Assembly: GCA_964520655.1 (NCBI GenBank)
Contig: CAZFNI010000012.1
Coordinates: forward strand, 1,917-65,916
DNA from: an uncultured Planctomycetales bacterium
Lineage (GTDB): Bacteria; Omnitrophota; Gorgyraeia; Zapsychrales; Fredricksoniimonadaceae
DNA: 64,000 bases
Direction: 5' to 3'
The notes under the pieces are model-generated. The model ran no database searches. It had not been told where the DNA came from and saw only the letters and a program-made list of their open reading frames with translations. A program made the translations under genes and the position numbers. Positions 1 to 58,673 of this stretch are shown piece after piece. The number at the start of each line of letters is the position of its first letter. The stretch's first letter is position 1.

Positions 1-1397
1 GTCCCTATGCCTACATTATTGGGAACAACCATACCCCCAGGTGGGGCAGACAATGTTGCGTATTGCCCAACACTTATCCCTCCTAAAACCCCTAAAGCAC
101 TACCTGGAGAGATCGTCCCCACCCCTAAGTTTGAATTCTTTAGCATTGCACCTAACGGATGAAGGGTTGAAGTCTCATTAAAAATAATAACGGCATCAGT
201 AAGGCTGCCATTATTATTATTATCTCCCACAAGATTCACTGTGTTTCTTGCCCCCAGCAGCAAGTTTCCTGTTACAGGACTGTTGATATATTCGGCAGGA
301 TCATTAAAATAAATCGAATTCAGATCACGCACATATATATTTCCATTAACATCCATCTGTGCAGCCGGTGCCCAGGTCCCGATCCCCACATTGCCATTGG
401 TGACCACCAACCCGCCTTGCGGCGTCGTTGTCCCAATACCAACCTTATCCGACCCAGTCGTGTTATAAACCGTACCAGTACCCGTCGACCAACCAGAGGC
501 CGCCGATGACGATATTGTCCCTGGGGCCATCCATGTCCCGATACCAGTTGAGCCAGAAACCAACACATACCCCGCTGATGGATTTGAGGATAACTGCAAG
601 CCTGTCGTGCGCGTCGTCCCCTGCACATCCAAAGCCGTACCAGGTGCCATCGACCCGATCCCCACATTACCCTCTACGATCAGCCCGCCAGCAGGCGAGG
701 TGCTTTGTATAAACGATGAATTATAATTAGTCCCAATTCCAACGCCACCCCCGGCAACAACAAACATACTTAATGGATTTAATGTGCCGATGCCTACATT
801 CCCGCTGGTTATAATACCTCCCGTCGGAGATGTGCTTGTAGCGAAGGCACCAAAACTCCCTCCGCCCAATACTGATAAAACACTATTTGGATTTGATGTT
901 CCAACACCAACATTACCGTTAAGATCAATTCTCATTTTCTCAGTGGGGACAACATCAGAATTACTTGTACGCGTTGAAAATATTAAAAGCCCCTGATAGC
1001 CTCCGCCTGTAGCCTCACCACCCCCTATCCATGAATGAGGATACGAATAAGTACCCGTTGTTCCATTAAACCCCATATAAACAAATCCCTGTGTCCCACC
1101 CGGATTACCTGCGGCAGTATTTAAACGAATAACTTCTGAACTATTTGCGCCAATAGCAATATTTAATGGTCTATTGGCAACCCAAGTACCTATCCCAACG
1201 TTCCCAGTAAGAACAACCAACCCACCCTGCGGAGTCGTTGTCCCAATACCGATATTACCCGTAGCCCCTTCCACATGGAAATAGTTCCGGGCATTGTTCT
1301 TGATATTAAAATCTTTCGCGGCAAAAGCAGACATAGGGAAAACCCCTGTCAGGCTTAAGAGCATCAAGATCCTTATGTAACAAAAGAATTTTGTCAT
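1..1397 (-). CDS. Giant secreted glycine-rich repeat protein, second paralog, N-terminal ~465 aa (gene runs off the window's left edge)
   Basis: The reverse complement of 1395-1397 is ATG. The translation is MTKFFCYIRILMLLSLTGVFPMSAFA|AKDFNIKNN...GNIGIGTTTPQGGLVV.TGNVGIGT... This has the same signal-peptidase site and the same GNVGIGT repeat modules as the 3066-12659 protein. The frame stays open to position 1. It is absent from the ORF track, presumably because no stop codon falls inside the window. Confidence 0.6.
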   Translation of the reverse strand, partial: MTKFFCYIRILMLLSLTGVFPMSAFAAKDFNIKNNARNYFHVEGATGNIGIGTTTPQGGLVVLTGNVGIGTWVANRPLNIAIGANSSEVIRLNTAAGNPGGTQGFVYMGFNGTTGTYSYPHSWIGGGEATGGGYQGLLIFSTRTSNSDVVPTEKMRIDLNGNVGVGTSNPNSVLSVLGGGSFGAFATSTSPTGGIITSGNVGIGTLNPLSMFVVAGGGVGIGTNYNSSFIQSTSPAGGLIVEGNVGIGSMAPGTALDVQGTTRTTGLQLSSNPSAGYVLVSGSTGIGTWMAPGTISSSAASGWSTGTGTVYNTTGSDKVGIGTTTPQGGLVVTNGNVGIGTWAPAAQMDVNGNIYVRDLNSIYFNDPAEYINSPVTGNLLLGARNTVNLVGDNNNNGSLTDAVIIFNETSTLHPLGAMLKNSNLGVGTISPGSALGVLGGISVGQYATLSAPPGGMVVPNNVGIG

Positions 1398-1425
1398 TTC
1401 AGTTATCATTTACTAGAACTAACCA

Positions 1426-3081
1426 TCAATTCGCCCTTAAAATGATCAAGGGCTTGCTTGCCTCGTGACTGCGATTGGCTTTCAGTTTTAAAAAATACTG
1501 CAAATTATATTGGGCGGTCGTGTCGAAAGGATCGGCGCTGACCGACCGTTTAAAATATTCTTCTGCAGCAGACCAGTCATTTAATTTCAAACAAACAGCC
1601 GCCAGAGTATTTAATGCGTTTTTGGATCTAGGCTCAATGCGGACCGCTTTGGATAAATAAAGCCTGGCCAGCGTCAAATGCCCCTGGAATAACGCGATCG
1701 AGCCCAAATTGGTGTAAATGACATGGTCCCCATATTGGCCAGTGAGCGCAAGTCCGTACTGCTGCGAAGCATCATCAAACTGTCCTTTAACAAAATAGCC
1801 CCGGGCCAAATACTTATGAACTGTCTTGAGCAACGGGCTCTGTTCCTGCCAGTACGAGGCATATTTCATTTCATCATGCCACAGCTCGTTATAGCGCCAC
1901 GAGATCACTACCCATCCGGAGATCAAGACCACGACCATCACCAGTGACACATTGGCAAAAACACGACGAGCAGGCATGACGATCACATCCGCGAGGATCA
2001 TAAAAAATCCGATCGATGTCCACATCAGCCACTGGGGTGCAAACAGCAGCGCCTGACCGTTGAACAATCCGCCAATAGCCATCAATATCATCCCCAGAAA
2101 AAACCAGGAAAATCCTGCCAATATCCAGACTCTATGGCGAAAAAATCTCCAAAGCACCCAGAACATCACACCCCAGACAGCACAGCCTCCCAAAACCCAG
2201 ACCGCTGTCAGATCCCTAACAACAGGTTTCAGTGTCACCGCGACGATACCATCAGGGACAAAGAATCGGGACACATACCAGACCTGCATCGAAAAACAGG
2301 ACGCGGCATATTCCCACAAGCTCATATGGTAGCCATCGAACTTGGCAAAAATATTTCCGTACAGGCTGGCCCATTTCAATCTCAGCAGGAAATACGCAAA
2401 CGCCGTGATCCACAGAATTCTCTGCTCACGCCAGATCTGAGCAGCTTCTTTTTGCTGAACGAACAGCGACAACAAGGCCAGGGCCGGTGGGAATATAAAC
2501 GCATTCTCATGACAGAATAAAGCTCCCAGATAACACAAAAACACAAAGAATCTTTCCCTAAACGATGTCTTTCTAAAACACAGCACATGGGCACAAAACA
2601 GCAGCAATAGTAATTGCAGCGCGAATATCCCGGCAGATTTGTAATTGACGATAATACCGTTTAACGGATGAACCAGAACGAAAACAGGAACAAGTGTTGA
2701 GAACACAACATTTTTGGATAAGTGCAAAAGCAATGACCGTAGCGCCAGACACGCCGCGATGAACATCAACAGATAAAAAACATGGATGATGACAACATTG
2801 CCATTGCTGATGATATTGATCAACCGGGGAACGATCAAGGCCAGCGGCCGGTAATGATCATCTGTTTGCGGCCCTTCCAAATGCAAAACTTTTGCCTTAT
2901 CAGGAACAAGGTTCAACCATAAATTCCTGGGGTCGCGTGACGCGGCATCAGAGAATGTGTGGTCATCGAGCATGACAGGATGATTGAGCGCGTTAAAGAA
3001 TGTCAGCAGCCCCAACAGCAAGAACAAAATAAAAGCATTTCGTTGAAGTGACAGAAATTTGGCCATCATATCACCCACCAT
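1426..3081 (-). CDS. Polytopic membrane glycosyltransferase (PMT/ArnT-like GT-C fold, GT39/GT83-type) with C-terminal TPR repeats
   Basis: 551 aa. The N-terminus has a 'HPVMLDDHTF' acidic loop motif after TM1 and about 11 hydrophobic helices. The last ~150 aa are TPR-like (ARLYLSKAVRIEP..., AEEYFKRSVSADP...). The start overlaps the stop of the giant gene by 16 nt. Confidence 0.5.
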   Translation of the reverse strand: MVGDMMAKFLSLQRNAFILFLLLGLLTFFNALNHPVMLDDHTFSDAASRDPRNLWLNLVPDKAKVLHLEGPQTDDHYRPLALIVPRLINIISNGNVVIIHVFYLLMFIAACLALRSLLLHLSKNVVFSTLVPVFVLVHPLNGIIVNYKSAGIFALQLLLLLFCAHVLCFRKTSFRERFFVFLCYLGALFCHENAFIFPPALALLSLFVQQKEAAQIWREQRILWITAFAYFLLRLKWASLYGNIFAKFDGYHMSLWEYAASCFSMQVWYVSRFFVPDGIVAVTLKPVVRDLTAVWVLGGCAVWGVMFWVLWRFFRHRVWILAGFSWFFLGMILMAIGGLFNGQALLFAPQWLMWTSIGFFMILADVIVMPARRVFANVSLVMVVVLISGWVVISWRYNELWHDEMKYASYWQEQSPLLKTVHKYLARGYFVKGQFDDASQQYGLALTGQYGDHVIYTNLGSIALFQGHLTLARLYLSKAVRIEPRSKNALNTLAAVCLKLNDWSAAEEYFKRSVSADPFDTTAQYNLQYFLKLKANRSHEASKPLIILRAN

Positions 3082-6000
3082 TGTGTACCGTCGCAGACAA
3101 CGGTAAAAGACTGGTACTGAGTTGTTGTTGAGATCGTTGCGCTTCCATCAACCGTTTCCGCGGCGTTGCCGTCTAAGATCACCGCGTTGGCCGATGAGTC
3201 CGTTTTCTTGATATTATAAAGACGACCAGAAACCGTGCTTGCGGCCGGCAAAGTGATCGTGACCGCACCGCCCGAGGCGTCCACCAATATCACATAATCA
3301 TTGACAGTGGCGGTGTAATTCGCGGTCTTGCTGACAACCGCGACCCCCATTGAACCTTTGAGCTGTAACGAGGATTGGGCCGTCCACGTGCCGATACCGA
3401 CATTTCCTCCATAAAGGATGAACTTGTCCTGCGGCGTTGTCGTTCCAATACCGACATTGCCTTCCACCATCATGCCCCCTGTCGGAGCAGCCGAGATAAC
3501 GTAGGCGGAATTCTTCCCTGTGCCGATACCAACCCCTCCTGATACAGAGAGCCTGCTAGACGCCGTGACTGTTCCTATACCCACATTGCCCCCAATTGGA
3601 TTGATCAGAATATTACCTTTTGAAGCATCACTGGTTGAATCGAGCGTCAAATTGCCAGCCGCGTTATATGTTCCATACAACGTATTAAACATAGCCCGGC
3701 CAAGATAATCAACACTGCCTAAAAAGGAACCTGATGCCGTCCAGATACTCAGCACATTCTGCGTGCTTCCCGACGCCGCAACGATACTCACCGCCGATTT
3801 GGCAGTTGTCGTCGGTTTGATCGTAAAATACGATGGCATGGAACCAAATGCAGAAAGAATTGATGGTGAGCTCCCAAAAACCGTTTCCCCAACAACACTA
3901 AAGGGAACTTCATTCGTTAACCACGTTCCGATCCCTACATTTTCTCCCATGACAACCAGCCTGCCCTGCGGTATCGTCGTGCCAATACCGACATTACCTG
4001 CTGCAGTTACATTAACTAAAACATTCCCTGAAGAATCTTGTGCTTGTATCAAGTCCGCAGTTTGTGCCGCTGCTCCCCGAGATATCAACCCCACAACATT
4101 TGATGCTGTCGGGATCAAAGCAACTTGAGCAATATCCGTATAAAAATTACGGGCAAAATTCAAATGCCCTGTAGAGAGCTGGACCCAGTCATATCTACTG
4201 TCTGTTGAATTAAAGACAGCAAAGGCACCAGCTCCTGGAGCGGCAGATGAACCAGTTGATATAAAACTATACGTCTTGCCTGAGGATGCGGCTGCATTCA
4301 ACGAAACTCCTGCGCCTACAGTTGTTGATAGCCCATTTGCTTTCACATACAGAGGGCCAAGAGCGGCGTTTGTCGTATCCCCAACAACCACCATAGGAAA
4401 TTCTGGCGCGTAGCTTCCAACCCCCACGTTACCCTGAATGATCATGCCATTCCCTGGAGTGGTGTAATAGCCGGCATATAAAGTCCCGACCCCGACTCCA
4501 CCTTGAACATCTAGTTTATTCTTGGATAGCGTAGTCCCCAGACCAACATTACCCGAAGCTGTCACATTACTATTAACAATCCCATCAAAAGAACCGCCGT
4601 TATTGTATTGCAATTGCGATGATGAACCTCCCGGTGTTCCTCCCCCTGATGTTGACAACGTGCTTGCCGCCATCCAGGTACCGATACCCGTTGAACCCGA
4701 CACCAGCACATAACCCGATCCAGGATTACTGCGCACACGTAGTGTATTTGTATCAACGCCCGCCGCAGCCGTCCATGTCCCGACACCAAGATTACCCTTG
4801 CTGACAACTAAAGCGTCCTGCGGGGTTGTTGTACCAATGCCCACATTGCCGTTATCAAAAATGGATGAATTCCCAACCGTTGTCGATGATGCAGCCTTTT
4901 GCAAATAATTTGTTGTCATAGAAGTGTAAGACGGATATGTACTCGTATCGACGGAGAGAGTCCCATCGCCAGACCCAGTCTTGACAAAACCGTTGGACGT
5001 CAAATTTGTTATCTTAGGTGCATTGATCCCTGTCGTAAACTTACCGGTACCCACCACATCCAGACTCTGTGCCGGGTTTACGCTTCCAATACCGACATTC
5101 GTTGTAAAATAGGTATCGCTTGTTCCATACACATCAAGTAAAGCCTGCGGTGCCCAGGTGCCGATCCCCACATTCCCATTCGTGACAACAAATCCCCCCT
5201 GCGGCGTCGTTGTACCGATACCGACCTTGTCTGAACCCGTCGTGTTATAAACCGTTCCCGTCCCCGTCGACCAGCCGGAGGCCGCCCCACCCGTCGCCAG
5301 CGTTGACGCCGCCATCCATGTCCCGATACCTGTCGAGGACGAAACCAAGACACTCCCCGCCGCTGCATTGTTGCCGATCAACCGCAAGCCGGTTGTTTCC
5401 AAAGACGCGTTCGCCGCTGTCCAGGTGCCGATGCCGACATTTCCTCCAACAACGATAAACTTATCCTGAGGCGTGTGTGTTCCAATGCCCACATTACCTT
5501 CAATGATCATCCCCCCGGCAGGTGGTGATGTTGTTAGGAATCTATCGCCATTCTTTACTGTACCAACACCAACATTGCCCACGATCGACAATACAGCCTG
5601 CGGGGATGATGTTCCCAAAGCTACATTGCCGCCACCCACATACAATGCCGATTCTGACGACATCGTAAAAGTATTGATGCCAATATTACCTGTCAGCAGA
5701 AAATTGGTTTTATTGGCAGTGCTCCAGGCAAACGTTGGGGGGACTGATCCTGTAGTCGCACCGATCTGAAGCGTTGAATCCGAATTAGATGTTGCCGGAC
5801 CAATACCCCATGCGGCAGTCGATACCCAATTACCGATCATCTGTGGAAATCCCCCACTGCCTGGTCCGCCATAAGTACCGAAATACAGTTGATCAGGGGC
5901 GCCTGATACTGATCGGTTTGCCCGACCAACCTGTAAAGCAACCCCTGGTTTCCAGGTACCGATCCCAACAAATCCATTCATGACCGTCAGTCCAGCGTTG

Positions 6001-9000
6001 CTCGTCAGCACTGTACCGATCCCCACCCCTCCATTGGCGTCAACGATAAATGGCGCGCTGGTCGGACTCCCTACTTGGAAAACCCCTGCCGGAGCCCATG
6101 TCCCTATCCCCACATTCCCATTAGTCACAACCAACCCACCTTGAGGCGTTATTGTTCCAATACCCACATTATCGGATCCCGTCGTGTTATAAACCGTCCC
6201 AGTACCCGTCGACCAGCCTGAAGCCGCAGCCCCAGTTGCCAGGGTGGACGCCGCCATCCATGTACCGATACCTGTCGAGGACGAAACCAGAACACTCCCC
6301 GCCGATGCATTGTTGCCAATCAAACGTAATCCGGTTGTTTCAAGTGAAGCACTATCTGCCGTCCATGTCCCTATACCGACATTCCCGCCGGTCACGGACA
6401 ATCTAGCCTGCGGTGTTATCGTCCCAACACCCAAATTACCGCTGCCGTCAATAACAACATCAGAATTAGAAGTGGAGTTTGACCGTGAGAAATACAATTT
6501 CCCAGCCCCCACCGAGTTTGACGCGGTTGATGCCCCCATGTACCAGGTGTTAGACCCTGTTGCTCCCAGCTGAATGCTGATCATACTGCTTGGATTTAGG
6601 ATATTTAACCCTGTGCCGTCTCCACCCGAAGCTATGATGCGCTGGGTGCCGTTAACATCCAATGTTGTTCCCGGAGCATAGGAACCGATCCCCACATTAC
6701 CTTGAACGATCATCCCACCGCTTGGCGCGGCAGTCGTCAAATAAGGTGAATTGATCCCCGTCCCAACACCGACATTCCCCACAATAGCCATCTTATTTTT
6801 CGGCACAACCGTACCTACCCCCACATTACCATTAGCATCAAAAACAACTTTGTCTGTCAACGAGCCACTGGATGCTGTTGAAAAAACAAGATTGGTGGAG
6901 TTGGCCGCTGTGTATGTGGTTCTTAATGTCGTTAATGGGCTATAATTTTGCCCTAACGCGCCAGCAAAAACGAAACTAATCCCCTGCGAATCACCAACGG
7001 TTGATCTGGACGTGATCATGGATATCGCTGTGCCGTTGGCCGCATCATTCTGGATCTCAACAGTTCTAGCTGATGGCGATGTTCCCGTTGATGTTGTCCA
7101 AAATGCCGCTGCTACGGGTTCACCGCCCACAGCATTAGCCGTAGTAGTATTCTTGAACAACGCCATAGTGTAGGGAACTGCCGACGTCCCAACGCCCACA
7201 TTACCCCCAGAAGTAATAAGCAGTGGCGATGAATCGTTAGGACCACTGTCATTGATGCGCAGCAATTCTTGCGCGCCGTCACCAACAACCTCCAGTTTTG
7301 AATGCGTCGTCCCAGTACCAATACCAACATTCCCCAAACGAACACTCAACGCATTATCCGGCGCCCACGTGCCGATACCCACATTCCCGTTAGTGACGAC
7401 CAATCCGCCTTGCGGCGTTATTGTTCCAATACCAATATTATCTGACCCTGTCGTGTTATAGACTGTCCCGGTTCCTGTCGACCATCCGCTGGCCGCCCCA
7501 GAAGTTGCCAACGTCGATGCCGCCATCCATGTCCCGATACCCGTCGATGACGACACAAGAACACTCCCCGCCGCTGCCCCGTTACCGATCAATCGCAGGC
7601 CGGTTGTTTCCAAAGAGGCATTCGCCGCCGTCCATGTGCCGATCCCGACATTGCCCCCCAAAACAGCGAGCTGTGCCTGCGGTGTCGTTGTCCCTAAGCC
7701 CACATTGCCCTGGACGATCATCCCTCCGCTTGGGGCTGCACTGGTTACAAATGAAGAATTTATTCCAGTGCCAATGCCAACGCCTCCAACAGTAGACAAT
7801 TTATTAAATGGTGTGAATGTCCCAACACCCAAATTACCTGATTCATCGATCGTGATTTTTGCTGCATCCGAAACACCGATCATCACACCAAATACCCGAT
7901 TCACGATACCCCGGCCAAAAACAAAACCATAATGACCATTACTTGCAGCTGGAACACTGTTGCCTATACCGATCGCAACACCATTATCATTGTTTATTGT
8001 ATTGCTAGAACCAATAGCGATCGCTCCGGAAGAAGCATTTGTGTTATTGCTATAACCAAAAACCATGGACTGCCAACCGTTAGTATTTGAATACCCAAGA
8101 CTGATCCCATTGGAACCAGAACCGATGTTTACCCCGCCGGTTGATTGCTCCCCTGTGATTGCGATCGTACTGCTTTTAACTTCCAATGTCGCAATGGGAG
8201 CCCACGTTCCAATCCCCACATTCCCATTCATCACCACAAGCCCGCCCTCTGGAGTAGTTGTTCCAACACCCACCTTATCACTACCCGTTGTGTTATAGAC
8301 TATCCCTGTACCCGTCGACCAACCGGACGCCGCACCGGATGTCGCCAGCGTAGATGCTGCCATCCATGTCCCAATACCAGTCGATGATGACACAAGCACG
8401 CTTCCTGCCGCGGCACCGTTGCCGATCAGCCGCAAGCCGGTTGTTTCCAAAGAAGTATTAGCTGCGGTCCACGTACCAATACCCACATTACCCCCGACAA
8501 CGATCAACTTATCTTGCGGCGTATGTGTTCCAATTCCCACATTACCTTCAATGATCATTCCACCTGCTGGAGGTGATGTTGTCAGGAATCGATCCCCATT
8601 CTTAACAGTGCCTACACCAACATTGCCAACGATCGACAATACAGCCTGCGGCGATGTCGTTCCGATCGCTAGATTCCCTGAGGCTATATACAATGCCGAT
8701 TCTTTTGACATCGCAAAAGTATTGATCCCAATATTACCCGTCAACATTAAATTCGTAGGATAAGTATTAGACCATGTAAATGGAGCAGAAACGGGTGTGG
8801 ACGTACCTCCAATTCTTAACGTAAAATCAGTATTAATCGCTGATGCAGGCCCGATCCCCCATGCTCCAGAACTCATCCAATTCCCAACCATCTGAGGATA
8901 ACCGGCTGTGTTACTATATGAAGCAAACCATAACTGGTCCGGAGATCCGCTAACAATTTGATTATATTTACCAAACTGCATCGCTACATCAGGCTTCCAT

Positions 9001-12000
9001 GTCCCGATACCGACTCTCCCATTTAATATAGTGATCGCAGCGCTCTGCGTATTGACCGTACCAATCCCAATATTACCTTGATTATCTACAACAAAACCCA
9101 GGCCATTACCAACGGAATTAACTTGAAATGCCGCCTGCGGCGCCCATGTTCCGATACCCACATTCCCGTTAGTGACAACCAATCCACCTTGAGGCGTTGT
9201 TGTCCCGATGCCGACATTATCAGAACCCGTAGTGTTGTAAACCGTTCCCGTTCCCGTCGACCAGCCCGAGGCTGCTCCGGATGTCGCCAACGTAGATGCT
9301 GCCATCCATGTCCCGATACCCGTCGATGATGACACTAGCACACTCCCCGCCGCCGCTCCGTTGCCGATCAAACGCAGACCAGTTGTTTCAAGAGACGCAT
9401 TATCTGCTGTCCATGTACCGATCCCTACATTCCCTCCGATCACAGAGAATTTTGCTTGAGGCGTTACTGTGCCAATACCAATATTGCTGCGGTAACTCCC
9501 TGAAGAATTAACCCCCAGGATAACATCACCATCCTGACCACTCCCATTTTTTGCCCCGCCAGTAATATAGACATTCCCCCCGCTGTAATTCGCATTATCG
9601 CCAGGACCACCTGATAAATTCAAATAACCGCCGGGAAGACCTGAAGCACCATAAACACTTCCTGGAACGATATTAATAAAATTACCACCGCTGTATTCTC
9701 CTGCGATCGTTATCGTGGGCCTGGGTTCCGCTCCCCCTGTGGTCCCCCCTTTAAGATTGATCGACCCGCCAGAAGATCCTCCAGTCGTCATATCAATGGT
9801 GGCACCATTATTCGACCCTGACCCGGAATTGCCCGTTGTGATCGCAACCCCTCCCCCAAAGCCTGTTGTCCCATTCTGACCATTCAACGTGATGGAACCG
9901 CCGCTGGCCTGGCTGTTCGCAACACTTCCTCCAGCGGTTAATGTTACCGAACCACCAACACCTGTTCCCGTTGAGGTGCCTCCAGTAAACGAAAGAGAAC
10001 CGCCATTGGTGTTGTTGGCTGTCGGTGTCCCACCTTTCATTTGAATTGATGTACTGTTACTGGATGGTGGAGCATTTACAGCAAAATAAGCCGCAGGGAA
10101 TATACTTCCTATCCCAACATTACCGATCGGCGCCACCACAAAAGCTCCATTAGGCGCCCAGGTGCCTATCCCAACATTCCCATTGGTCACAACTAATCCG
10201 CCTTGCGGTGTCGTTGTCCCGATCCCAATATTATCCGATCCCGTCGTGTTATATACCGTGCCCGTGCCCGTCGACCAACCTGACGCCGCTCCTGATGTCG
10301 CCAGCGTTGACGCAGCCATCCAGGTCCCAATACCCGTTGAACCAGAGACCAAAACACTCCCTGCCGCAGCCCCGTTGCCGATCAACCGCAGACCAGTTGT
10401 TTCAAGAGACGCATTATCTGCTGTCCATGTGCCGATCCCGACATTGCCACCAATAACCGACAGCTTAGATTGAGGCGTCATTGTGCCGATACCCAAATTG
10501 CCCATGCCATCAATCCTCATAAGTTGAGTTGTTACACCGCCTGACTTCTTAGAAAAAGTTGTATTATTCCCTGAAAATATAATCATTTCACCAGAATCAA
10601 TACCAAAACCATACCTATCGCCCCCAACGCCGCCATCGTAAAGATATATTTTATCTAACCCTCCAATTTGAGCAAAGGTAAGCGGTGCTGTTGGTGATGC
10701 ATTTCCAATACCTACATATCCAGTTGTTGTGTCCACTACTAAAGAGTTGATGCCTACTTGTAAAGTTTTATTTGGTGCCCACGTCCCGATCCCAACATTT
10801 CCATTGGTCACAACCAACCCGCCCTGCGAAGTTGACGTCCCAATACCAACATTATCCGTCCCCGTCGTTGTATATACTGTCCCCGTCCCCGAAGTCCACG
10901 GCCCTGACGCCGCCGGCAATGTCCCCGCCGCCATCCAGGTCCCAATACCCGTTGACGACGAAACCAAAACACTCCCTGCCGCAGCCCCGTTGCCGATCAA
11001 CCGCAGGCCAGTCGTTTCCAATGAAGCGTTATCCGCCGTCCATGTACCAATACCGACGTTCCCGCTAGTAACCATAAACGCTCCTTGCGGTGTCGTTGTC
11101 CCAATCCCCACATTACTTCCTCTGCTGGCTGGAATACCCACAATCGCGACATCATATTGCCCGCTCCACATATTTTGAAAATATGTTGATGCTGCCAGAA
11201 TATCAAGTCCATTATTCGAACTTTGAGCGCCATTAGTTGACCAAATAAATCCTCTTGATGCATTAGCACCTAAAGTTAATCTCCCATCCCAGGATCCCGC
11301 CGTGTTCGTGATCGATAAATTCCCCTCAGCTATATCAACTTTAGCAACGGGCTTCCATGTACCAATACCCACATTGCCATTCATCACAACCAACCCGCCC
11401 ACAGGCGTTGTTGTGCCGACACCAACGTTACCATTGCCATTTATCATAAATAGTGTCTTGTAACTGCTAGGGTTTCCTGCTGTGGTTGGTCCCCTGATCA
11501 AACTATATGCATCGTTTTGAACGTCAATTCTCGATGCCCATTCTGGATAACCAGCTTCATCAACCCATCCAGATTCATTGCCGTTAACTCGTATATCAAG
11601 ATAGCGAGCGCCAGCTCCAGCACTCGTGATAAAACGCGAAGAAGGCCCAGACGATGAATAAAATTTCAACGGACTAACTTGACCGCCATTGCCGATGTTA
11701 ACGCCAACAGCATATGAAGCAACACCCAGATCTAATGTGTATGCTGGCACTGTCGTTCCAATGCCGATCAAACCACTGGTAAGCACGTTAAACTTTCGAT
11801 TAACGTCAAATAAACTTACAGGCGCCCACGTCCCAATCCCCACATTCCCATTAGTCACTACTAACCCACCCTGTGGCGTCGTTGTCCCGATACCGATATT
11901 ATCCGACCCCGTCGCCGTATACACCGTCCCCGTACCAGAAGACCATGGTCCAGCCGCCGCCGGCAATGTCCCGGCAGCCATCCACGTCCCGATACCAGTC

Positions 12001-12659
12001 GAAGACGAAACAAGCACGTTCCCCGCCGCCGCACCATTGCCGATCAAACGCAGGCCCGTTGTTTCCAATGATGCCGTAGCTGCCGTCAACGTCCCTATCC
12101 CAACATTGCCTCCCATAACTGCTAAACGCGCTTGGGGTGTTTTTGTACCGATACCAACATTCCCGTCCCCTAAAATACGCATTTTAGAAAGCCAATTGTT
12201 CGTCGTAAAATCTATGTAGGCACTTGAGCTGGCCAAAGTAAATGCCAGATTATTAGTCGATAATGCCGCAGCAAAAGAAGTGTTATTTGTAAGATCATTA
12301 AAAGCCCCTCCAACAAAAGAACCGAATTCAAAAGCTCCTGAACCCGTAGCGTTGATCTGCATCTTTGACCCAGCACCGATCGTATCTGGTATAAACTGAA
12401 TATTCCCCGCAGAACTCACAATTGATAATGGATTTGTTGGTGCCCAGGTACCGATCCCCACATTCCCATTAGTCACCACCAACCTGCCCTGAGGCGTCGT
12501 TGTCCCGATCCCGATATTACCGGTCGCCCCGTCGACATGAAAATAGTTCTGGGTATTGTTTTTAATATTAAAATCTTTGGCAGCAAATGCAAAAGAAGGG
12601 AAAAGCGCGGCTAATAGAATTATTGTAAGAGACTTTAAATAATCTTTTATATATCTCAT
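3066..12659 (-). CDS. Giant secreted glycine-rich beta-helix/tail-fiber-like repeat protein (3197 aa)
   Basis: A 9.6-kb uninterrupted ORF. The N-terminal signal peptide is MRYIKDYLKSLTIILLAALFPSFAFA|AK. There are about 60 'GNVGIGT(W/T)xP' heptads and about 9 near-identical ~95-aa modules of the form GNVGIGTWTADNASLETTGLRLIGNGAAAGSVLVSSSTGIGTWMAASTLATSGAASGWSTGTGTVYNTTGSDNIGIGTTTPQGGLVVTNGNVGIGTWAP. The centre is G/S/T/N-rich low-complexity sequence. A distinct C-terminal ~90-aa domain ends ...YTATVNDYVILVDASGGAVTITLPAASTVSGRLYNIKKTDSSANAVILDGNAAETVDGSATISTTTQYQSFTVVCDGTQWWVI. Confidence 0.85.
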   Translation of the reverse strand: MRYIKDYLKSLTIILLAALFPSFAFAAKDFNIKNNTQNYFHVDGATGNIGIGTTTPQGRLVVTNGNVGIGTWAPTNPLSIVSSAGNIQFIPDTIGAGSKMQINATGSGAFEFGSFVGGAFNDLTNNTSFAAALSTNNLAFTLASSSAYIDFTTNNWLSKMRILGDGNVGIGTKTPQARLAVMGGNVGIGTLTAATASLETTGLRLIGNGAAAGNVLVSSSTGIGTWMAAGTLPAAAGPWSSGTGTVYTATGSDNIGIGTTTPQGGLVVTNGNVGIGTWAPVSLFDVNRKFNVLTSGLIGIGTTVPAYTLDLGVASYAVGVNIGNGGQVSPLKFYSSSGPSSRFITSAGAGARYLDIRVNGNESGWVDEAGYPEWASRIDVQNDAYSLIRGPTTAGNPSSYKTLFMINGNGNVGVGTTTPVGGLVVMNGNVGIGTWKPVAKVDIAEGNLSITNTAGSWDGRLTLGANASRGFIWSTNGAQSSNNGLDILAASTYFQNMWSGQYDVAIVGIPASRGSNVGIGTTTPQGAFMVTSGNVGIGTWTADNASLETTGLRLIGNGAAAGSVLVSSSTGIGTWMAAGTLPAASGPWTSGTGTVYTTTGTDNVGIGTSTSQGGLVVTNGNVGIGTWAPNKTLQVGINSLVVDTTTGYVGIGNASPTAPLTFAQIGGLDKIYLYDGGVGGDRYGFGIDSGEMIIFSGNNTTFSKKSGGVTTQLMRIDGMGNLGIGTMTPQSKLSVIGGNVGIGTWTADNASLETTGLRLIGNGAAAGSVLVSGSTGIGTWMAASTLATSGAASGWSTGTGTVYNTTGSDNIGIGTTTPQGGLVVTNGNVGIGTWAPNGAFVVAPIGNVGIGSIFPAAYFAVNAPPSSNSTSIQMKGGTPTANNTNGGSLSFTGGTSTGTGVGGSVTLTAGGSVANSQASGGSITLNGQNGTTGFGGGVAITTGNSGSGSNNGATIDMTTGGSSGGSINLKGGTTGGAEPRPTITIAGEYSGGNFINIVPGSVYGASGLPGGYLNLSGGPGDNANYSGGNVYITGGAKNGSGQDGDVILGVNSSGSYRSNIGIGTVTPQAKFSVIGGNVGIGTWTADNASLETTGLRLIGNGAAAGSVLVSSSTGIGTWMAASTLATSGAASGWSTGTGTVYNTTGSDNVGIGTTTPQGGLVVTNGNVGIGTWAPQAAFQVNSVGNGLGFVVDNQGNIGIGTVNTQSAAITILNGRVGIGTWKPDVAMQFGKYNQIVSGSPDQLWFASYSNTAGYPQMVGNWMSSGAWGIGPASAINTDFTLRIGGTSTPVSAPFTWSNTYPTNLMLTGNIGINTFAMSKESALYIASGNLAIGTTSPQAVLSIVGNVGVGTVKNGDRFLTTSPPAGGMIIEGNVGIGTHTPQDKLIVVGGNVGIGTWTAANTSLETTGLRLIGNGAAAGSVLVSSSTGIGTWMAASTLATSGAASGWSTGTGIVYNTTGSDKVGVGTTTPEGGLVVMNGNVGIGTWAPIATLEVKSSTIAITGEQSTGGVNIGSGSNGISLGYSNTNGWQSMVFGYSNNTNASSGAIAIGSSNTINNDNGVAIGIGNSVPAASNGHYGFVFGRGIVNRVFGVMIGVSDAAKITIDESGNLGVGTFTPFNKLSTVGGVGIGTGINSSFVTSAAPSGGMIVQGNVGLGTTTPQAQLAVLGGNVGIGTWTAANASLETTGLRLIGNGAAAGSVLVSSSTGIGTWMAASTLATSGAASGWSTGTGTVYNTTGSDNIGIGTITPQGGLVVTNGNVGIGTWAPDNALSVRLGNVGIGTGTTHSKLEVVGDGAQELLRINDSGPNDSSPLLITSGGNVGVGTSAVPYTMALFKNTTTANAVGGEPVAAAFWTTSTGTSPSARTVEIQNDAANGTAISMITSRSTVGDSQGISFVFAGALGQNYSPLTTLRTTYTAANSTNLVFSTASSGSLTDKVVFDANGNVGVGTVVPKNKMAIVGNVGVGTGINSPYLTTAAPSGGMIVQGNVGIGSYAPGTTLDVNGTQRIIASGGDGTGLNILNPSSMISIQLGATGSNTWYMGASTASNSVGAGKLYFSRSNSTSNSDVVIDGSGNLGVGTITPQARLSVTGGNVGIGTWTADSASLETTGLRLIGNNASAGSVLVSSSTGIGTWMAASTLATGAAASGWSTGTGTVYNTTGSDNVGIGTITPQGGLVVTNGNVGIGTWAPAGVFQVGSPTSAPFIVDANGGVGIGTVLTSNAGLTVMNGFVGIGTWKPGVALQVGRANRSVSGAPDQLYFGTYGGPGSGGFPQMIGNWVSTAAWGIGPATSNSDSTLQIGATTGSVPPTFAWSTANKTNFLLTGNIGINTFTMSSESALYVGGGNVALGTSSPQAVLSIVGNVGVGTVKNGDRFLTTSPPAGGMIIEGNVGIGTHTPQDKFIVVGGNVGIGTWTAANASLETTGLRLIGNNAAAGSVLVSSSTGIGTWMAASTLATGGAASGWSTGTGTVYNTTGSDKVGIGTTTPQGGFVVTNGNVGIGTWAPQALLDVYGTSDTYFTTNVGIGSVNPAQSLDVVGTGKFTTGINAPKITNLTSNGFVKTGSGDGTLSVDTSTYPSYTSMTTNYLQKAASSTTVGNSSIFDNGNVGIGTTTPQDALVVSKGNLGVGTWTAAAGVDTNTLRVRSNPGSGYVLVSGSTGIGTWMAASTLSTSGGGTPGGSSSQLQYNNGGSFDGIVNSNVTASGNVGLGTTLSKNKLDVQGGVGVGTLYAGYYTTPGNGMIIQGNVGVGSYAPEFPMVVVGDTTNAALGPLYVKANGLSTTVGAGVSLNAAASSGKTYSFISTGSSAAPGAGAFAVFNSTDSRYDWVQLSTGHLNFARNFYTDIAQVALIPTASNVVGLISRGAAAQTADLIQAQDSSGNVLVNVTAAGNVGIGTTIPQGRLVVMGENVGIGTWLTNEVPFSVVGETVFGSSPSILSAFGSMPSYFTIKPTTTAKSAVSIVAASGSTQNVLSIWTASGSFLGSVDYLGRAMFNTLYGTYNAAGNLTLDSTSDASKGNILINPIGGNVGIGTVTASSRLSVSGGVGIGTGKNSAYVISAAPTGGMMVEGNVGIGTTTPQDKFILYGGNVGIGTWTAQSSLQLKGSMGVAVVSKTANYTATVNDYVILVDASGGAVTITLPAASTVSGRLYNIKKTDSSANAVILDGNAAETVDGSATISTTTQYQSFTVVCDGTQWWVI

Positions 12660-12757
12660 TAGATTATATAGAGATGCGCGTAGTTATAGCTTCTAAATAC
12701 AAAATTATTTTATATTATTAAGATATAGCAACAAGAAAAGAATGGAATATTTTTCGG
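12660..12757 (-). promoter_or_regulatory. AT-rich spacer, probable promoter/5' UTR of the giant repeat-protein gene
   Basis: This is the only intergenic gap (98 nt, strongly AT-rich) between yraN and the giant ORF. No specific -10/-35 elements could be assigned with confidence. Confidence 0.3.
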
Positions 12758-13144
12758 TTATATCCAATTGCAGATAAAAGCGTTCTTCAAATGTCTAATG
12801 TCAGGTCCGGAGCCTGAATGAAGAATAGAAACCACATCAAAAAGGCAAGCAATGCAGGTTGTTTGAAAACATCGTTTAAGGTAAAATTCAGCTAATTTGA
12901 TCAATTTCCGTTGTTTAAAATAATGCACGGCTTCAAACGGCTGGCCACAGGCAATTGAGGCGCGGGTTTTAACTTCGACAAACACAAGCGTCTGATCATC
13001 ACGAGCAATAATGTCGATCTCCCCCATACGGCAGCGGAAATTCCGCTCAACGATCTGGTAACCCAGCTTCGTCAAATATTGACAGGCCGCATCTTCACCG
13101 GATCTTCCAAGATTTTTTCGCGTCATAAGCCCAAAGTTGACCAA
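12758..13144 (-). CDS. yraN: YraN-family (UPF0102) predicted endonuclease
   Basis: 128 aa. GEDAACQYLTKLGYQIVERNFRCRMGEIDIIARDDQTLVFVEVKTR is the characteristic YraN/UPF0102 core. Confidence 0.75.
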   Translation of the reverse strand: MVNFGLMTRKNLGRSGEDAACQYLTKLGYQIVERNFRCRMGEIDIIARDDQTLVFVEVKTRASIACGQPFEAVHYFKQRKLIKLAEFYLKRCFQTTCIACLFDVVSILHSGSGPDIRHLKNAFICNWI

Positions 13145-14253
13145 AGCCCCGCTTGCTCACGGTTTTGCTCAACCATTTTCCTTTGTTCAGCATGCGCGCT
13201 ATCAGTAATATCACCCAACGTTTTCCCATATTCAGCTGTTGCACCAGCCTTTTCAAAGAAAGATTTCCTCTCACCTTCCAAAAAATTAATCCCTTTTGTA
13301 ATGATATTTTTGTAGCTGTTAGCAATATTCGGATGATCACGGTAGCGACCAAGCCAATCGATCGCCTCATTATACTGATCCATCGTCCAATACACTGAAA
13401 GACCCGACACAATATCTTCAATATGGTTCCTTAATTTTTTCTCATCAAAAGACAACAACAACAAAACTTCCGCCTCAGTAAATGGCTTTGCGGGTAACGA
13501 CAATGCATTAAGCAACTCACCATCTACCATATGCTTGGTCTTAAGCTCATCAATGGCTTGTTCAAGCATCGTCCTAGCCTCCTGCCGATGATCTTTCAAC
13601 ACTCGCCCGATCCTTTTAGCTGGGCCGCTCATCATCAATCCCGTTTTGGTGATCTTCCAGACCGGCAGGATCGCCAAGATCCTCTCTTTACGTTCCCCCC
13701 TGAGATTAAACGCGTCAAATAAATTCCCGAACAGATTATCCCCGTCGGAATATTGAAGATACTGGAACGCGCTGCCGCCCTGGCAGCTATCAAGAAGACC
13801 CGCCAGATCATTGCGGAATTCATGCCGGACAAAATATTTATCTCGCAAACAATCGAAAACTGACTGTTTACGCAATGCATTCAGATCCTGACGGTCATTT
13901 GATTCCAGATCCCCTAACCGCTTTTGGTCCATTGCGTACCTTAAATAGGCGATCGTCTGAAAATACTTATACACATCTGCCTCTGCCGGCGCAGCATACG
14001 ACCACAATAGTAACGGTGCATCGCCAATGCGCCTGCGTACGCTCCTGCGGCTTAATTGTTCGATCGACATCTCTATCTGCGCATCTCTATTCAACGTTGC
14101 TGAAAGCATCGGATGGATACCTTTTTCAGAATAGCGGTAAGGAGTTTTATAGGCTGTCATGAAACCCCCGTCGTCCTTATCCACTGCAAAAATATCCGTC
14201 CAGCCATTGATCGGCGCGATCAACATCAATATCCAGACTAAAATCCTCATCAA
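13123..14253 (-). CDS. Secreted hypothetical protein, last gene of the T4SS/T4P operon (possible Tra accessory protein)
   Basis: 376 aa. The N-terminal signal peptide is MMRILVWILMLIAPINGWT. No motif was recognised. It overlaps the upstream gene by 4 nt (ATGA). Confidence 0.5.
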   Translation of the reverse strand: MMRILVWILMLIAPINGWTDIFAVDKDDGGFMTAYKTPYRYSEKGIHPMLSATLNRDAQIEMSIEQLSRRSVRRRIGDAPLLLWSYAAPAEADVYKYFQTIAYLRYAMDQKRLGDLESNDRQDLNALRKQSVFDCLRDKYFVRHEFRNDLAGLLDSCQGGSAFQYLQYSDGDNLFGNLFDAFNLRGERKERILAILPVWKITKTGLMMSGPAKRIGRVLKDHRQEARTMLEQAIDELKTKHMVDGELLNALSLPAKPFTEAEVLLLLSFDEKKLRNHIEDIVSGLSVYWTMDQYNEAIDWLGRYRDHPNIANSYKNIITKGINFLEGERKSFFEKAGATAEYGKTLGDITDSAHAEQRKMVEQNREQAGLWSTLGL

Positions 14254-14696
14254 TTCCTCATTAATTGTCCCATGAGCACTTCCTGGGCCTTGATGATCTG
14301 CTCAGTTTTTTTCTCTTGCCATCTTAAATATTCCCTGGCGTTTTCCTGATTTGGCACATTCAAAAGATTCAGCACAGGCTGCGGCGGCTGATAATAAGTT
14401 ATCTTCCCGTTAGCATCAACCATCGGCTCCCGCCAATCGATCAAAGCTTTATCAGCCAAAAGATCAGACTTTTCTTTTTTCTCAAAATACTCCAAATGTT
14501 GTAAATGATAATAATCATTAGCGGAGGCTTTGTAAGGATGAACGATCAATATTACTATAAAGATGAGGGAACAGCAGTTTTGCAACATTGTATGAACCTC
14601 CAGAAGATCCAGGAGAATTCTTCCTCCTTGTTGCTCCGCTCGCCAACGGCATTCTTTGCCACCCAAAACCGGGGATCCTGACCCAACGGCATGCAT
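14250..14696 (-). CDS. Small secreted hypothetical protein (likely true start near 14588)
   Basis: An internal Met begins a signal-peptide-like segment, MLQNCCSLIFIVILIVHPYKASA. The upstream 5' extension overlaps the TraU-like gene out of frame. The mature part is about 90 aa with no recognised motif. Confidence 0.35.
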   Translation of the reverse strand: MHAVGSGSPVLGGKECRWRAEQQGGRILLDLLEVHTMLQNCCSLIFIVILIVHPYKASANDYYHLQHLEYFEKKEKSDLLADKALIDWREPMVDANGKITYYQPPQPVLNLLNVPNQENAREYLRWQEKKTEQIIKAQEVLMGQLMRN

Positions 14697-15310
14697 TTCT
14701 GTTGATCAGGCTCAACCATCTGGATCTTATCCTGCCAGCGGTTAATGGAAAAAAGGATCGGAGCTTGTGAAATATGCCCGCTCATAAGACCTCCGGCGCT
14801 GATACCTCTTAACGCGATCAATGCTGACGATGCCGCAGGACTGTAATGGCTGACAAATCCTGTTCGAGGATACACAGGCCCCCAATTGCCCACAAATTCA
14901 CGAGCAGTTGTCGTCTCTTGACGCCATTGACGGCTGTCCATCTCAGACCTATATCTCAGCCCCACAGCTGTATTCGTCAATGAGCCACATAAGACCATTT
15001 GTTCAATTTGTTTTAATGGAAAATCATACACATGTGCATCATGAAACCGCAGATTACTGCCGCTTAAAGCATTCAAGCTTGCCTTACGAGCGATCGTATG
15101 GATCACCAATGATGGTTCATAATACGAGATCCAAACTCCCGGAATATCCCCCACCATACAGGCCCCATGACTTTTAAGCTGCCAGCAACTTTGGTCAACA
15201 CGCTCAACCGCGTGCACCAGATTGATCCCGTCCCCCTTTATCTCATCCGCAGAATATGCAAGCACATGTGCGGCTAATATAAACCCTATCAGGATAATTA
15301 TCTTTTTCAT
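14555..15310 (-). CDS. traU: TraU-like F-type T4SS periplasmic protein (shortened relative to F-plasmid TraU)
   Basis: 251 aa with a signal peptide. Remembered F-plasmid TraU motifs are present in order: SCWQL (F: ICWSC), GVWISYYEPSLV (F: GLAIGYWEPMAL), HDAHVYDFPL (F: HVHWYKYPL), MVLCGSL (F: TSLGCLEGG) and YRSEMDSRQW (F: YLSEIDPTW). About 70 aa of the F protein are missing. Confidence 0.5.
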   Translation of the reverse strand: MKKIIILIGFILAAHVLAYSADEIKGDGINLVHAVERVDQSCWQLKSHGACMVGDIPGVWISYYEPSLVIHTIARKASLNALSGSNLRFHDAHVYDFPLKQIEQMVLCGSLTNTAVGLRYRSEMDSRQWRQETTTAREFVGNWGPVYPRTGFVSHYSPAASSALIALRGISAGGLMSGHISQAPILFSINRWQDKIQMVEPDQQKCMPLGQDPRFWVAKNAVGERSNKEEEFSWIFWRFIQCCKTAVPSSL

Positions 15311-16170
15311 AACTTCATAATGAAAGCTAATGCGTAAAACGGAGGCACATGACTATCAGGAATGATCGGATGCGTATGCGACTGATTGCCCCCCGTATCT
15401 GAAGTCAATGAACTGATCTGACCTGTCATGACTGGAGAACTGTGACCATCATATCGGCTCCCCAGCCAGGGCGTTTCATTATACGCATGATGGTGGGCTG
15501 GCATCTCCGCGATAGTCAACGCATGTGGCCCTGTTTCACTGCCATGATCGTGAGAAATACTACCGCCGCTTTTTTCTAATTTCCCCTGAAGATTGGTTTT
15601 ACTGACCCCACCCTCATCTTGCCGCGAGCCAACGATAAATTTATCGCGAAGATCCGGTGTACCATTCTGCCCATCACACAAAACCCAACCTAAAGGAATG
15701 CTGGCGATCGACCCAGACCACGCCACGATCACACCGGAAGCAATTTCATCTTGATCATTAGCCCCGGTAACACTACTCACAACATCTCCCGCGAATGACG
15801 CTTGCAGCAAACGCGAATTAATCATTGGCACTAAATTTAACGGCACTTGAACACTGACACTCATTTTTTTCTCATCAAACATCACTTGGTAGGGATGCCC
15901 CCAGGGGTTAAGTAAAGACCACAGCGGACTTAAGTAACCATCTATTTGCATCTGTTTTAAATCCGTTGGCCATTCATGATGATCCCTGTGATACTTTCTG
16001 CCAGCTGCCTGGATAACCCCCACCTCGGCAATTGTTTTCTCACCGGCACGGATCTCGACAGCGCGGACCATCACCGGCAATACCGCCGTTGTCAACAAAG
16101 CAACAATGCCCATGACGATCGCCAACTCAACTAACGAAAAACCATTTTTTCCTAGAATGTCGCGGTCCAT
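15307..16170 (-). CDS. Type IV prepilin-like protein, large (minor pilin or PilV-like tip-adhesin candidate)
   Basis: 287 aa. The N-terminus MDRDILGKNG|FSLVELAIVMGIVALLTTAVLPV is a class III signal peptide with Gly-1, Phe+1 and Glu+5. A large C-terminal globular region follows. Confidence 0.6.
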   Translation of the reverse strand: MDRDILGKNGFSLVELAIVMGIVALLTTAVLPVMVRAVEIRAGEKTIAEVGVIQAAGRKYHRDHHEWPTDLKQMQIDGYLSPLWSLLNPWGHPYQVMFDEKKMSVSVQVPLNLVPMINSRLLQASFAGDVVSSVTGANDQDEIASGVIVAWSGSIASIPLGWVLCDGQNGTPDLRDKFIVGSRQDEGGVSKTNLQGKLEKSGGSISHDHGSETGPHALTIAEMPAHHHAYNETPWLGSRYDGHSSPVMTGQISSLTSDTGGNQSHTHPIIPDSHVPPFYALAFIMKL

Positions 16171-16601
16171 GTCGTGCTCGCTTCATCATAGTTAACTTTT
16201 GACGCGCTATTATTGAAATAGTTACTTAGCTTATCCGCTTCCGTTTTGACCAAACTATTCAAACTAATGTCAAAACGTGTATTATCCACCGGATTGCTGG
16301 AAACATCAAATTTCCCGCCCCAAGGGTTTGATGCGGCTGCATCAAAAGTATCCGGTAATAATTTAGCTGTTTTTAAAGCCTCAACACTGACGCCCGAGAA
16401 ACTTACTTTACCCAATGCCAGGTAACTTTCTGCAGCGCTACGCAATGTCTGCACACTATTTGCCGCGGATTGAACCCTGGCATTATCCCTCAACCCCGCA
16501 GACATAGAGACCGCCAGGATCAATACAGTTAATACCGCAAGACCTATTGCGAGCTCCACCAAAGAAAACGCCCCTGTTGAATTAATATTGATCCGTTTCA
16601 T
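16152..16601 (-). CDS. Type IV prepilin-like protein (probable major pilin)
   Basis: 149 aa. The N-terminus is MKRININSTG(A)FSLVELAIGLAVLTVLILAV, a prepilin-type hydrophobic N-terminal helix. The cleavage site is either G|A (Glu at +6) or A|F (Glu at +5). Confidence 0.6.
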   Translation of the reverse strand: MKRININSTGAFSLVELAIGLAVLTVLILAVSMSAGLRDNARVQSAANSVQTLRSAAESYLALGKVSFSGVSVEALKTAKLLPDTFDAAASNPWGGKFDVSSNPVDNTRFDISLNSLVKTEADKLSNYFNNSASKVNYDEASTTWTATF

Positions 16602-16618
16602 ACTATCCTCCTTGTGTT

Positions 16619-19419: not shown

Positions 19420-19420
19420 C

Positions 19421-19951
19421 TTAACCCCCGATCAAAATAACCTTCTCTTTGCCATCTTTTGTTCTGAGCACCGCCTTATCATCATCGATCCTCACTACGG
19501 TCACGTCACCACGAAGCATCTGGCCCGCTTTTGCTGACACTCTTACACTGTGATCCAACAGCAATCCTAGACGTTCATTCCCAATACGAACAATACCTTG
19601 CAGCTTGATAGGAAAATTTTCCGTATCCTGCTCTTTTTTCTCATTCAACATGGACGTAAAATTATCCTCCTGATCTAATTTTTTGATCCTGGAACGCAGA
19701 TCAGCGCGCTGTAGATCAAGATTTAAGAGTTTTATTTCCCGCATCCGCTTGTTTTCCTGATCAATAAAATCGTCTACATCCTGACGATCTGAGCGCACCG
19801 ATCCTTTTGAGACCATCTGGTCCACCATAGACACTTCCTGTGCATACACATTGCTAAACTCAAGAACAAATACCAGCAAACAAACTAATATACTAAGCCC
19901 CATACACACCCCCATTGATCTGCAGCATGTTATCTTTGAACGCCACGTCAT
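19421..19951 (-). CDS. PilP/GspC-like periplasmic pilus-assembly protein (N-terminal TM, coiled coil, C-terminal beta domain)
   Basis: 176 aa. There is one N-terminal TM segment. The C-terminal segment LQGIVRIGNERLGLLLDHSVRVSAKAGQMLRGDVTVVRIDDDKAVLR resembles the PilP/HR domain. The assignment is by architecture only. Confidence 0.35.
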   Translation of the reverse strand: MTWRSKITCCRSMGVCMGLSILVCLLVFVLEFSNVYAQEVSMVDQMVSKGSVRSDRQDVDDFIDQENKRMREIKLLNLDLQRADLRSRIKKLDQEDNFTSMLNEKKEQDTENFPIKLQGIVRIGNERLGLLLDHSVRVSAKAGQMLRGDVTVVRIDDDKAVLRTKDGKEKVILIGG

Positions 19952-21538: not shown

Positions 21539-21539
21539 T

Positions 21540-28784: not shown

Positions 28785-28787
28785 GTA

Positions 28788-29069: not shown

Positions 29070-29070
29070 C

Positions 29071-38387: not shown

Positions 38388-38388
38388 C

Positions 38389-58653: not shown

Positions 58654-58673
58654 GTGCCATATGTCGGCATTTT

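Follow-up and report, generated by a model that had tools for sequence, protein, structure and literature searches.

The window analysed here is a 64-kb stretch (64,000 nt) of contig CAZFNI010000012.1, and the gene in question occupies positions 1426..3081 on its minus strand (551 aa, ATG to TGA, stop codon included). According to sequence comparison, its product appears to be a divergent bacterial TMTC-like GT-C glycosyltransferase that ends in tetratricopeptide repeats (TPRs), the nearest described family being TMTC (GT105). The favoured reading, to which we give slightly less than even confidence, is that it may act as a periplasm-facing protein O-glycosyltransferase with a polyprenyl-phosphate-sugar donor, whose TPRs would recruit the co-expressed fibre proteins between their export by Sec and their secretion. 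The length of the open reading frame (ORF) is far beyond chance, its 551 codons contain neither a frameshift nor an internal stop, and homologues are found with E-values down to 7e-164.

Membership of the membrane part in the GT-C superfamily is supported by predicted structure and by profile comparison. Since the Foldseek results for the full-length model were dominated by TPR matches, an AlphaFold model was built for the transmembrane (TM) part only (residues 1-405, 30-sequence alignment; pLDDT 86.7, pTM 0.89). According to the Foldseek search of the PDB, ranks 1-24 for this TM-only model belong exclusively to GT-C enzymes (STT3/OST, Pmt4, Pmt1-Pmt2, ArnT, AglB, ALG12, ALG9, DPY19, AftA, AftD, and PIG-U), with TM-scores of 0.36-0.54 and probabilities of at least 0.66, followed by other membrane proteins at 0.12 or below. 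The PMT, ArnT, and AglB structures, which an earlier reading of the same letters (hereafter the original prediction) had proposed for comparison, are all among these 24. When aligned by hhalign with the membrane domain of human TMTC3, the family profile reaches 99.8% probability (E = 2.9e-28) over 384 columns (TMTC3 residues 9-431), with two unrelated polytopic proteins, used as negative controls, both below 1%. In the TMTC3 sequence used, 22/22 motif residues agree with the numbering in Table 4 of PMC7801869.

As for direct searches, Pfam reports no significant match for the membrane part of the window protein, the TPRs being the sole hits; neither PMT nor PMT_2 is found at E up to 1, and Mannosyl_trans4 appears below the threshold (E = 0.05-0.12). 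Sequence searches of the PDB with the window protein or the full-length profile return TPR proteins only, and a search with the TM-only profile returns nothing, even at E = 10. Among 30 homologues, 11 membrane domains match Pfam PMT_2 (best E = 6.4e-9) and 1 matches PMT, and several relatives are annotated by the Joint Genome Institute as 'protein O-mannosyl-transferase'. An exhaustive HMMER scan with the membrane-domain profile collects 129,650 clusters (50% identity) at E <= 1e-3 and 51,103 at E <= 1e-30. Many poorly characterised prokaryotes are noted to have full-length homologues, in which TPRs come after a sugar-transferase module (PMC7801869), and no study on bacterial TMTC-like enzymes was found in the literature beyond this remark. 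The window protein is a member of this very large family, which is known already but functionally unstudied. Regarding the label of PMT/GT-C type given by the original prediction, the GT-C part stands according to Foldseek, the PMT_2 matches of homologues, and the TMTC3 alignment, but PMT proved too loose a term, as there is neither a MIR domain nor a PMT match and the nearest family is TMTC.

Hydropathy and the AlphaFold models both show a polytopic N-terminal module of about residues 1-400, as had been expected from the letters alone. The GT-C membrane module (1867..3081, minus strand; residues 1-405) has 11 predicted TM helices in a 1-6-4 layout; an 11-TM 1-6-4 model is described for POMT and TMTC (PMC6801728). 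Its external loops include EL1 of 63 aa, directly after TM1, and EL4 of 54 aa. Counted on the model helices, Lys and Arg amount to 15 in the short cytoplasmic loops versus 0 in the short periplasmic ones. The N-terminus is predicted to be cytoplasmic and the C-terminus periplasmic; the loop with D39-D40 and the TPR domain would both face the periplasm, the latter being placed there on the basis of the odd number of TM helices and the positive-inside rule. This C-terminal TPR domain (1462..1866, minus strand; residues 406-540) comprises 3-4 repeats: Pfam TPR_1, TPR_2, and TPR_8 match at residues 455-518, in a TPR region of about residues 430-530, with E down to 4e-12, and the AlphaFold model has eight helices between residues 404 and 536, which confirms the TPRs that the original prediction had seen.

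Conservation was counted over 291 relatives of the window protein, with the TMTC motif definitions taken from PMC7801869. Near-universal residues that are also present here are D39, D40, Y77, R78, P79, H100, H138, P139, E192, P198, Y230, R234, Y269, P276, S356, G358, N398, and W401. The catalytic-type acidic pair D39-D40 (2962..2967, minus strand) represents TMTC motif M1 in EL1 according to conservation and the TMTC3 alignment, and it is the acidic motif that had been noted earlier in the first extracytoplasmic loop; D is found at position 39 in 287/291 relatives and at position 40 in 286/291, with D31 and D32 as the TMTC3 counterparts. Also in EL1, Y77-R78-P79 (2845..2853, minus strand) forms the core of M2 (SHKSYRP), of which YRP alone is kept, the SHKS part being aligned with T73-D74-D75-H76. 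The equivalent of M4 (K-E; KE(T/Q)xxT) in EL3 is H191-E192 (2506..2511, minus strand), where the glutamate is kept (E in 288 of the 291). Together with 17 paralogues in related loci, the window protein falls into a clade with the signature HPxNG, F153, and H191-E192.

Among known systems, the animal TMTC1-4 proteins (GT105; endoplasmic reticulum, cadherins and protocadherins as clients) are the closest in design: in them too, a GT-C module of 11 TM helices precedes TPRs on the non-cytoplasmic side, they share the DD in EL1, the YRP core, the HP that ends TM3, and the EL3 glutamate, and they also come as multiple paralogues, which suggests client-specific enzymes. TMTC1-4 and TMEM260 are protein-specific O-mannosyltransferases, for whose luminal TPRs a role in selecting folded repeat domains has been proposed (PMC7801869, PMC10214176). 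Unlike TMTC1-4, the window protein is bacterial and would draw on a bacterial polyprenyl phosphate sugar as donor; its TPRs number only 3-4, against a longer TPR region in the animal proteins; M3, M5, and M7 are not conserved, the M4 lysine is a histidine, and the proposed clients are fibre-like repeat proteins rather than cadherin domains. Because three of the seven TMTC motifs failed, it is not filed as a GT105 member in the strict sense. With the canonical bacterial TMTC-like family ('tetratricopeptide repeat protein' or 'protein O-mannosyl-transferase'), in which tandem paralogue arrays are common, it shares the architecture and a homologous membrane domain (profile E down to 1e-135). Canonical members, however, keep HPxHTE, RxD, K/R-E, E-Y, and E-H/R-W-x-Y, in place of which the window clade has its own signature.

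Other GT-C families fit less closely. PMT/POMT enzymes (GT39, including actinobacterial Pmt) have the same fold, the acidic pair in loop 1, and 11 TM helices, and their clients are Ser/Thr-rich secreted proteins similar to the clients proposed here; the window protein, however, carries a C-terminal TPR domain instead of a MIR domain, and its EL4 has merely ~54 residues. Assignment to PMT was rejected owing to the missing PMT/PMT_2 match and the absence of a MIR domain between TM7 and TM8. ArnT (GT83), which works in the bacterial inner membrane with an undecaprenyl-phosphate sugar, is a structural match (5f15, TM-score 0.49) and reportedly the closest solved homologue of the TMTCs (PMC7801869), but it has 13 TM helices, a globular periplasmic domain, a lipid acceptor, and no TPRs; membership in this lipid A aminoarabinose transferase family was rejected on these defining features. 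TMEM260 (DUF2723), for which distant bacterial homologues are mentioned (PMC10214176), likewise combines a GT-C module with a TPR region on the luminal side; DUF2723, however, matches 0/30 of the homologues scanned, and the sequence kinship is to TMTC instead. PglB/STT3 (GT66) was rejected since the translation lacks the WWD of WWDYG and the C-terminal domain consists of TPRs rather than a globular periplasmic fold, and a PglL/Wzy_C-type O-oligosaccharyltransferase was rejected since Wzy_C is absent from the Pfam matches at E up to 1.

The position of the gene ties it to its neighbours. As stated by the original prediction, the longest ORF overlaps the stop of the upstream 3197-aa gene by 16 nt (3066..3081, minus strand), the TGA of that gene (3068-3066) lying inside the 5' end of the glycosyltransferase gene. 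The public gene call of the identical protein (P0001, 547 aa) starts at Met5 (ATG 3069-3067), with which the overlap becomes a 4-nt ATGA (3066-3069). This start is preceded by a Shine-Dalgarno-like GGTGG stretch and is more likely than that of the longest ORF. The spacer to the next gene (1398..1425, minus strand) measures 28 nt up to the first ATG at 1397, one more than the 27 nt previously given, and 61 nt if the start is the one used on L001. The latter, an independent 3.4-kb assembly (run SRR26835473), contains the same three genes in the same order, with an identical copy of the glycosyltransferase. Promoter- or terminator-like sites are not found above chance in positions 1-15000, and none is reported within the spacer 1398..1425. 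Given the overlap, the short spacer, the gene order on L001, and the lack of promoter or terminator excess, the three genes look like one translationally coupled transcription unit.

Both flanking genes encode candidate substrates. The upstream gene, giant 1 (3066..12659, minus strand), encodes 3197 aa with a Sec-type signal peptide, and its composition (17.5% G, 12.6% T, and 10.4% S) bears out the earlier description of a Ser/Thr-rich giant. It contains 65 [VIL]G[IVL]G motifs, in 59 of which Thr comes next; most are paired, 18 residues apart, as in GNVGIGTTTPxxxLxVxxGNVGIGTW. The NVGIGT repeat motif was not found in any paper. The C-terminal ~100 aa (window 3069-3400, minus strand) are similar to the C-terminal ends of tail-fibre, minor-tail, and baseplate-wedge proteins of phages, with matches to a Thermocrinis virus (43.7% identity, E = 3e-17) and to Halorubrum, Streptomyces, and Microcystis phages; this similarity suggests that the C-terminus may be a receptor-binding tip. 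The downstream gene (1..1397, minus strand), the second candidate substrate, is cut by the window edge and encodes at least 465 aa; its signal peptide and repeats are those of giant 1, with whose N-terminus it shares 44% identity. Neither protein has a Pfam match. Concerning the claim that the gene lies between two giants, the 3197-aa length holds for giant 1 and the downstream gene belongs to the GNVGIGT type as well, at least 465 aa of it lying within the window.

The giants are immediately preceded, on the same strand, by a hybrid cluster of secretion genes (window 14555-32835, minus strand), in which components of type II/type IV-pilus systems occur together with those of F-type type IV secretion. 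It holds genes for TraU-like, pseudopilin (with the N-methylation motif), GspF, GspE, secretin, TraC/VirB4-like ATPase, TrbI-like, DUF3438, and TraG_N-like proteins, and also for an ABC exporter and a small TPR protein. For the giant genes of Omnitrophota, a type II/type IV-like secretion system has been noted as the usual upstream neighbour (bioRxiv 10.1101/2023.11.21.568195), and the cluster beside these giants agrees with that remark. As to the organism, nearly all of the best named relatives of the methionine synthase encoded in the window (65-71% identity) come from Candidatus Omnitrophica/Omnitrophota.

Close relatives of the window protein (36-47% identity) are rare, with 12 in a 5.8-billion-protein search; the GTDB species genomes yield 3 loci of the subfamily, all on short contigs of metagenome-assembled genomes labelled 'uncultured Planctomycetales'. 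In L002, L003 (the same contig as L004 and L009), L005, L006, and L007, the 17 clade paralogues alternate with genes for secreted Gly/Ser/Thr-rich repeat proteins. This alternation is seen in every contig of at least 10 kb, as a descriptive association. In L002 a clade paralogue starts 2 nt downstream of the repeat gene rep1367; in L005 the order is a propeller-like giant ('SEGFVV...WGQWLGG', more than 1749 aa), two paralogues, p300 (a ~300-aa secreted Pfam-less protein), and the orthologue; and in L006 a 626-aa paralogue overlaps a GNVGIGT gene by 28 nt, which is the layout of the window. A GNVGIGT protein is also present in L003, 5 kb downstream. In the literature, no description was found of the variant clade or of the way in which it alternates, in Omnitrophota, with secreted repeat proteins and tail-fibre-like giants.

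The SEGFVV proteins constitute a second class of large secreted repeat proteins (L005 11-5260, L002 1000-5103, and L006 5404-8778) with a repeat unit of ~60 aa, SEGFVVEIxDGGTPxLxWGQWLGGxxxDxVxALAVxGDEIYAGGYSxxSTSFE, which may form a beta-propeller. One protein of this class has a weak CBM60 match.

A dedicated role in fibre O-glycosylation, as put forward by the original prediction, is plausible, favoured by the coupling to the upstream giant, the predicted periplasmic orientation of the TPRs, and the alternation of the clade with secreted repeat-protein genes, including that in L006. Here we infer catalytic activity, donor, acceptor, and timing relative to export. The protein would be an inner-membrane GT-C enzyme related to TMTC, with its D39-D40 loop, presumed catalytic, and its TPRs in the periplasm. 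The GNVGIGT fibre proteins, exported by Sec, would be caught by the TPR domain on emerging into the periplasm, where one sugar would be moved from a polyprenyl-phosphate-sugar donor onto Ser/Thr hydroxyls. Candidate sites include the Thr in the repeated GIGT motif, and the glycosylated fibres would then be exported to the cell surface. The sugar need not be mannose, since the TMTC motifs modelled as contacting mannose are not conserved. A broader version of this proposal, possible if doubtful, is that the whole HPxNG/F153/H191-E192 clade is a client-specific glycosylation system, in which each paralogue modifies the neighbouring secreted repeat protein. Its clients may be GNVGIGT tail-fibre-like giants, propeller-like SEGFVV giants, or p300 proteins, and the remodelled pocket may accept a sugar other than mannose.

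A number of observations on the active site, the locus, and the wider family weigh against fibre glycosylation by this protein. Regarding the fold, the Foldseek E-values are modest (best 1.6e-3). Regarding the active site, M3 (RxD, EL2) is lost, with G151 and F153 in positions where the family has R in 157/291 and D/E in 270/291; M5 (DW, EL4, DUF1736 segment) is lost as well, with V282-T283 in the aligned columns, and Pfam gives no DUF1736 match. The clade as a whole lacks M3, M5, and the HTE of EL2, and has H191 where TMTC has the M4 lysine. Most of all, M7 (ERxxY; bacterial consensus E-H/R-W-x-Y) in EL5 is degenerate and reads A348-P-Q350-W-L-M353 (2023..2040, minus strand), although the 291 relatives have E/D in 285 (98%), H/R in 287 (99%), and Y in 277 (95%). 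In comparison with the 12 close relatives, only the window copy has lost E348, H350, and the aromatic/aliphatic residue at 353. In TMTC models the M7 residues touch the donor phosphate (PMC7801869), and the M7 loss is the main reason for doubting activity. Within the 13-member subfamily, moreover, no protein diverges more than the one in the window, which deviates at 34 positions where at least 11 of the 12 closest relatives agree.

Part of these changes is not peculiar to the window protein. The M3 loss, the loss of HTE after HP, and the K-to-H change are common to all 17 paralogues in the related loci; the canonical Omnitrophota pair in L010, in contrast, retains HPxHTE, RxD, K/R-E, and E-H..Y. 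Since the variant residues are conserved within the clade, its sequences argue for an active site that has been remodelled rather than decayed. E348 is absent in 3/18 clade members, namely the window protein, L006_3726 (P), and L003_5497 (G); the latter two genes (L006 3726-5402 and L003 5497-7146) both lie within multi-paralogue arrays. Such recurrent loss may mark non-catalytic partner subunits.

These losses bear most directly on the explanation that the gene encodes a dead or weakened TMTC-like protein, which would serve as a membrane-anchored TPR scaffold or chaperone for the giants, or as a non-catalytic partner of an active paralogue (cf. PMT dimers). It would account for the missing E348, H350, and Y353, for the 34 lineage-specific changes at positions conserved in the subfamily, and for the E348 loss in the two array paralogues, and the adjoining large secretion gene cluster suits it too. 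This explanation is nevertheless rather unlikely: D39-D40, YRP, HP, and E192, the residues most tied to GT-C catalysis and metal binding, are intact, the ORF is intact with an identical copy independently assembled in L001, and no second paralogue that could be the active partner is seen in the 64-kb window.

Gene context provides the remaining objections. In 6/6 other loci, the closest orthologues come directly after p300 and not after a GNVGIGT giant (p300 at L002 7177-8154, L003 7150-8055, L005 8958-9881, L006 8794-9696, L007 627-1502, and L008 2-595). The p300 protein has YP(L/I)LI(D/E) as its terminal motif, and its domain is also present N-terminally in larger repeat proteins (E = 1e-17 and 2e-13); no p300 is found among all ORFs of the window by a hidden Markov model search with all filters off. 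A polyprenyl-phosphate sugar synthase (GT2) was not found among the window ORFs scanned. The distant canonical family members examined have neither giants nor secreted repeat proteins as neighbours: L010 contains a tandem pair next to secretin genes, in L011 the member stands among envelope glycopolymer genes (PMT_2, DUF2298, LytR_cpsA_psr, and FemAB), and in L012 (524-15864) seven canonical TMTC-like paralogues lie in tandem, after which come a radical-SAM gene and a GT2 of 234 aa, the latter a candidate polyprenyl-phosphate sugar synthase. The original prediction had held that homologues routinely found without adjacent repeat-protein genes would speak against it; such homologues are found in the broad family but not in the clade of the window gene.

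It is against this background that an active GT-C enzyme with another acceptor has to be considered, either a general periplasmic O-glycosyltransferase or, as ArnT, an envelope lipid or polysaccharide transferase, with the TPRs docking elsewhere. The structural match to ArnT, itself reportedly the closest solved TMTC homologue (PMC7801869), the size of the family (129,650 clusters), the distant members in envelope glycopolymer loci (L011) or giant-free tandem arrays (L010 and L012), and the different partner (p300) of the closest orthologues are all compatible with it. It is unlikely, however, because the full-length architecture is that of the protein-specific TMTC type, the HPxNG clade alternates with secreted-protein genes in all the longer contigs, and the many paralogues per locus suit acceptor specialisation better than a single lipid acceptor. 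Finally, a relic paralogue in a rearranged, decaying locus, with accidental adjacency to the giants, would fit the most divergent subfamily member, the missing p300 partner, and a flanking gene order that differs from L005, but it is highly improbable given 551 uninterrupted codons, the retained invariant family residues, and the tight ATGA coupling upstream, which is typical of maintained operons.

Several other features of these loci were recorded. Two conserved polytopic proteins follow the orthologue in L002 (11614-15961) and L003 (10272-14730), with 679/715 aa and 787/788 aa and 50-54% identity between the loci; they have no Pfam match, and hhalign against the GT-C profile shows no relation. 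An arylsulfotransferase (ASST) gene (L003 4041-5411) lies between two TMTC-like genes of the array and may represent a second kind of modification. Gene order is conserved between window 54520-62333 (minus strand) and L005 11861-21776, a block of PPDK, class II tRNA synthetase, RNA methyltransferase, PanB, and Fer4_20/Pyr_redox genes; this PPDK-PanB block adjoins the glycosyltransferase array in L005 (the contig of orthologue P0010) and is 50 kb away from the gene in the window. The window also contains an 'aerotolerance' operon with BatA, BatB, BatD, a TPR protein (BatC-like), DUF58, and a MoxR AAA protein (34838-41744, minus strand).

Bacterial TMTC-like proteins are very numerous (~130,000 clusters at 50% identity), and no functional study of them was found; this locus and its relatives offer concrete pairs of enzyme and candidate-substrate genes. 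If the pairing is true, protein-specific O-glycosylation by TPR-bearing GT-C enzymes would predate animals, and there would be an explanation for the extensive multiplication of paralogues in these bacteria. The pairing would also mean that giant adhesins in uncultured bacteria, possibly predatory or epibiotic ones, are glycoproteins, which would be relevant to prey or host binding. An inactive window copy would represent a GT-C pseudo-enzyme kept as a TPR scaffold. If the client-specific proposal for the clade is true, Omnitrophota would have glycan-coated attachment fibres and a prokaryotic counterpart of the TMTC-cadherin pathway.

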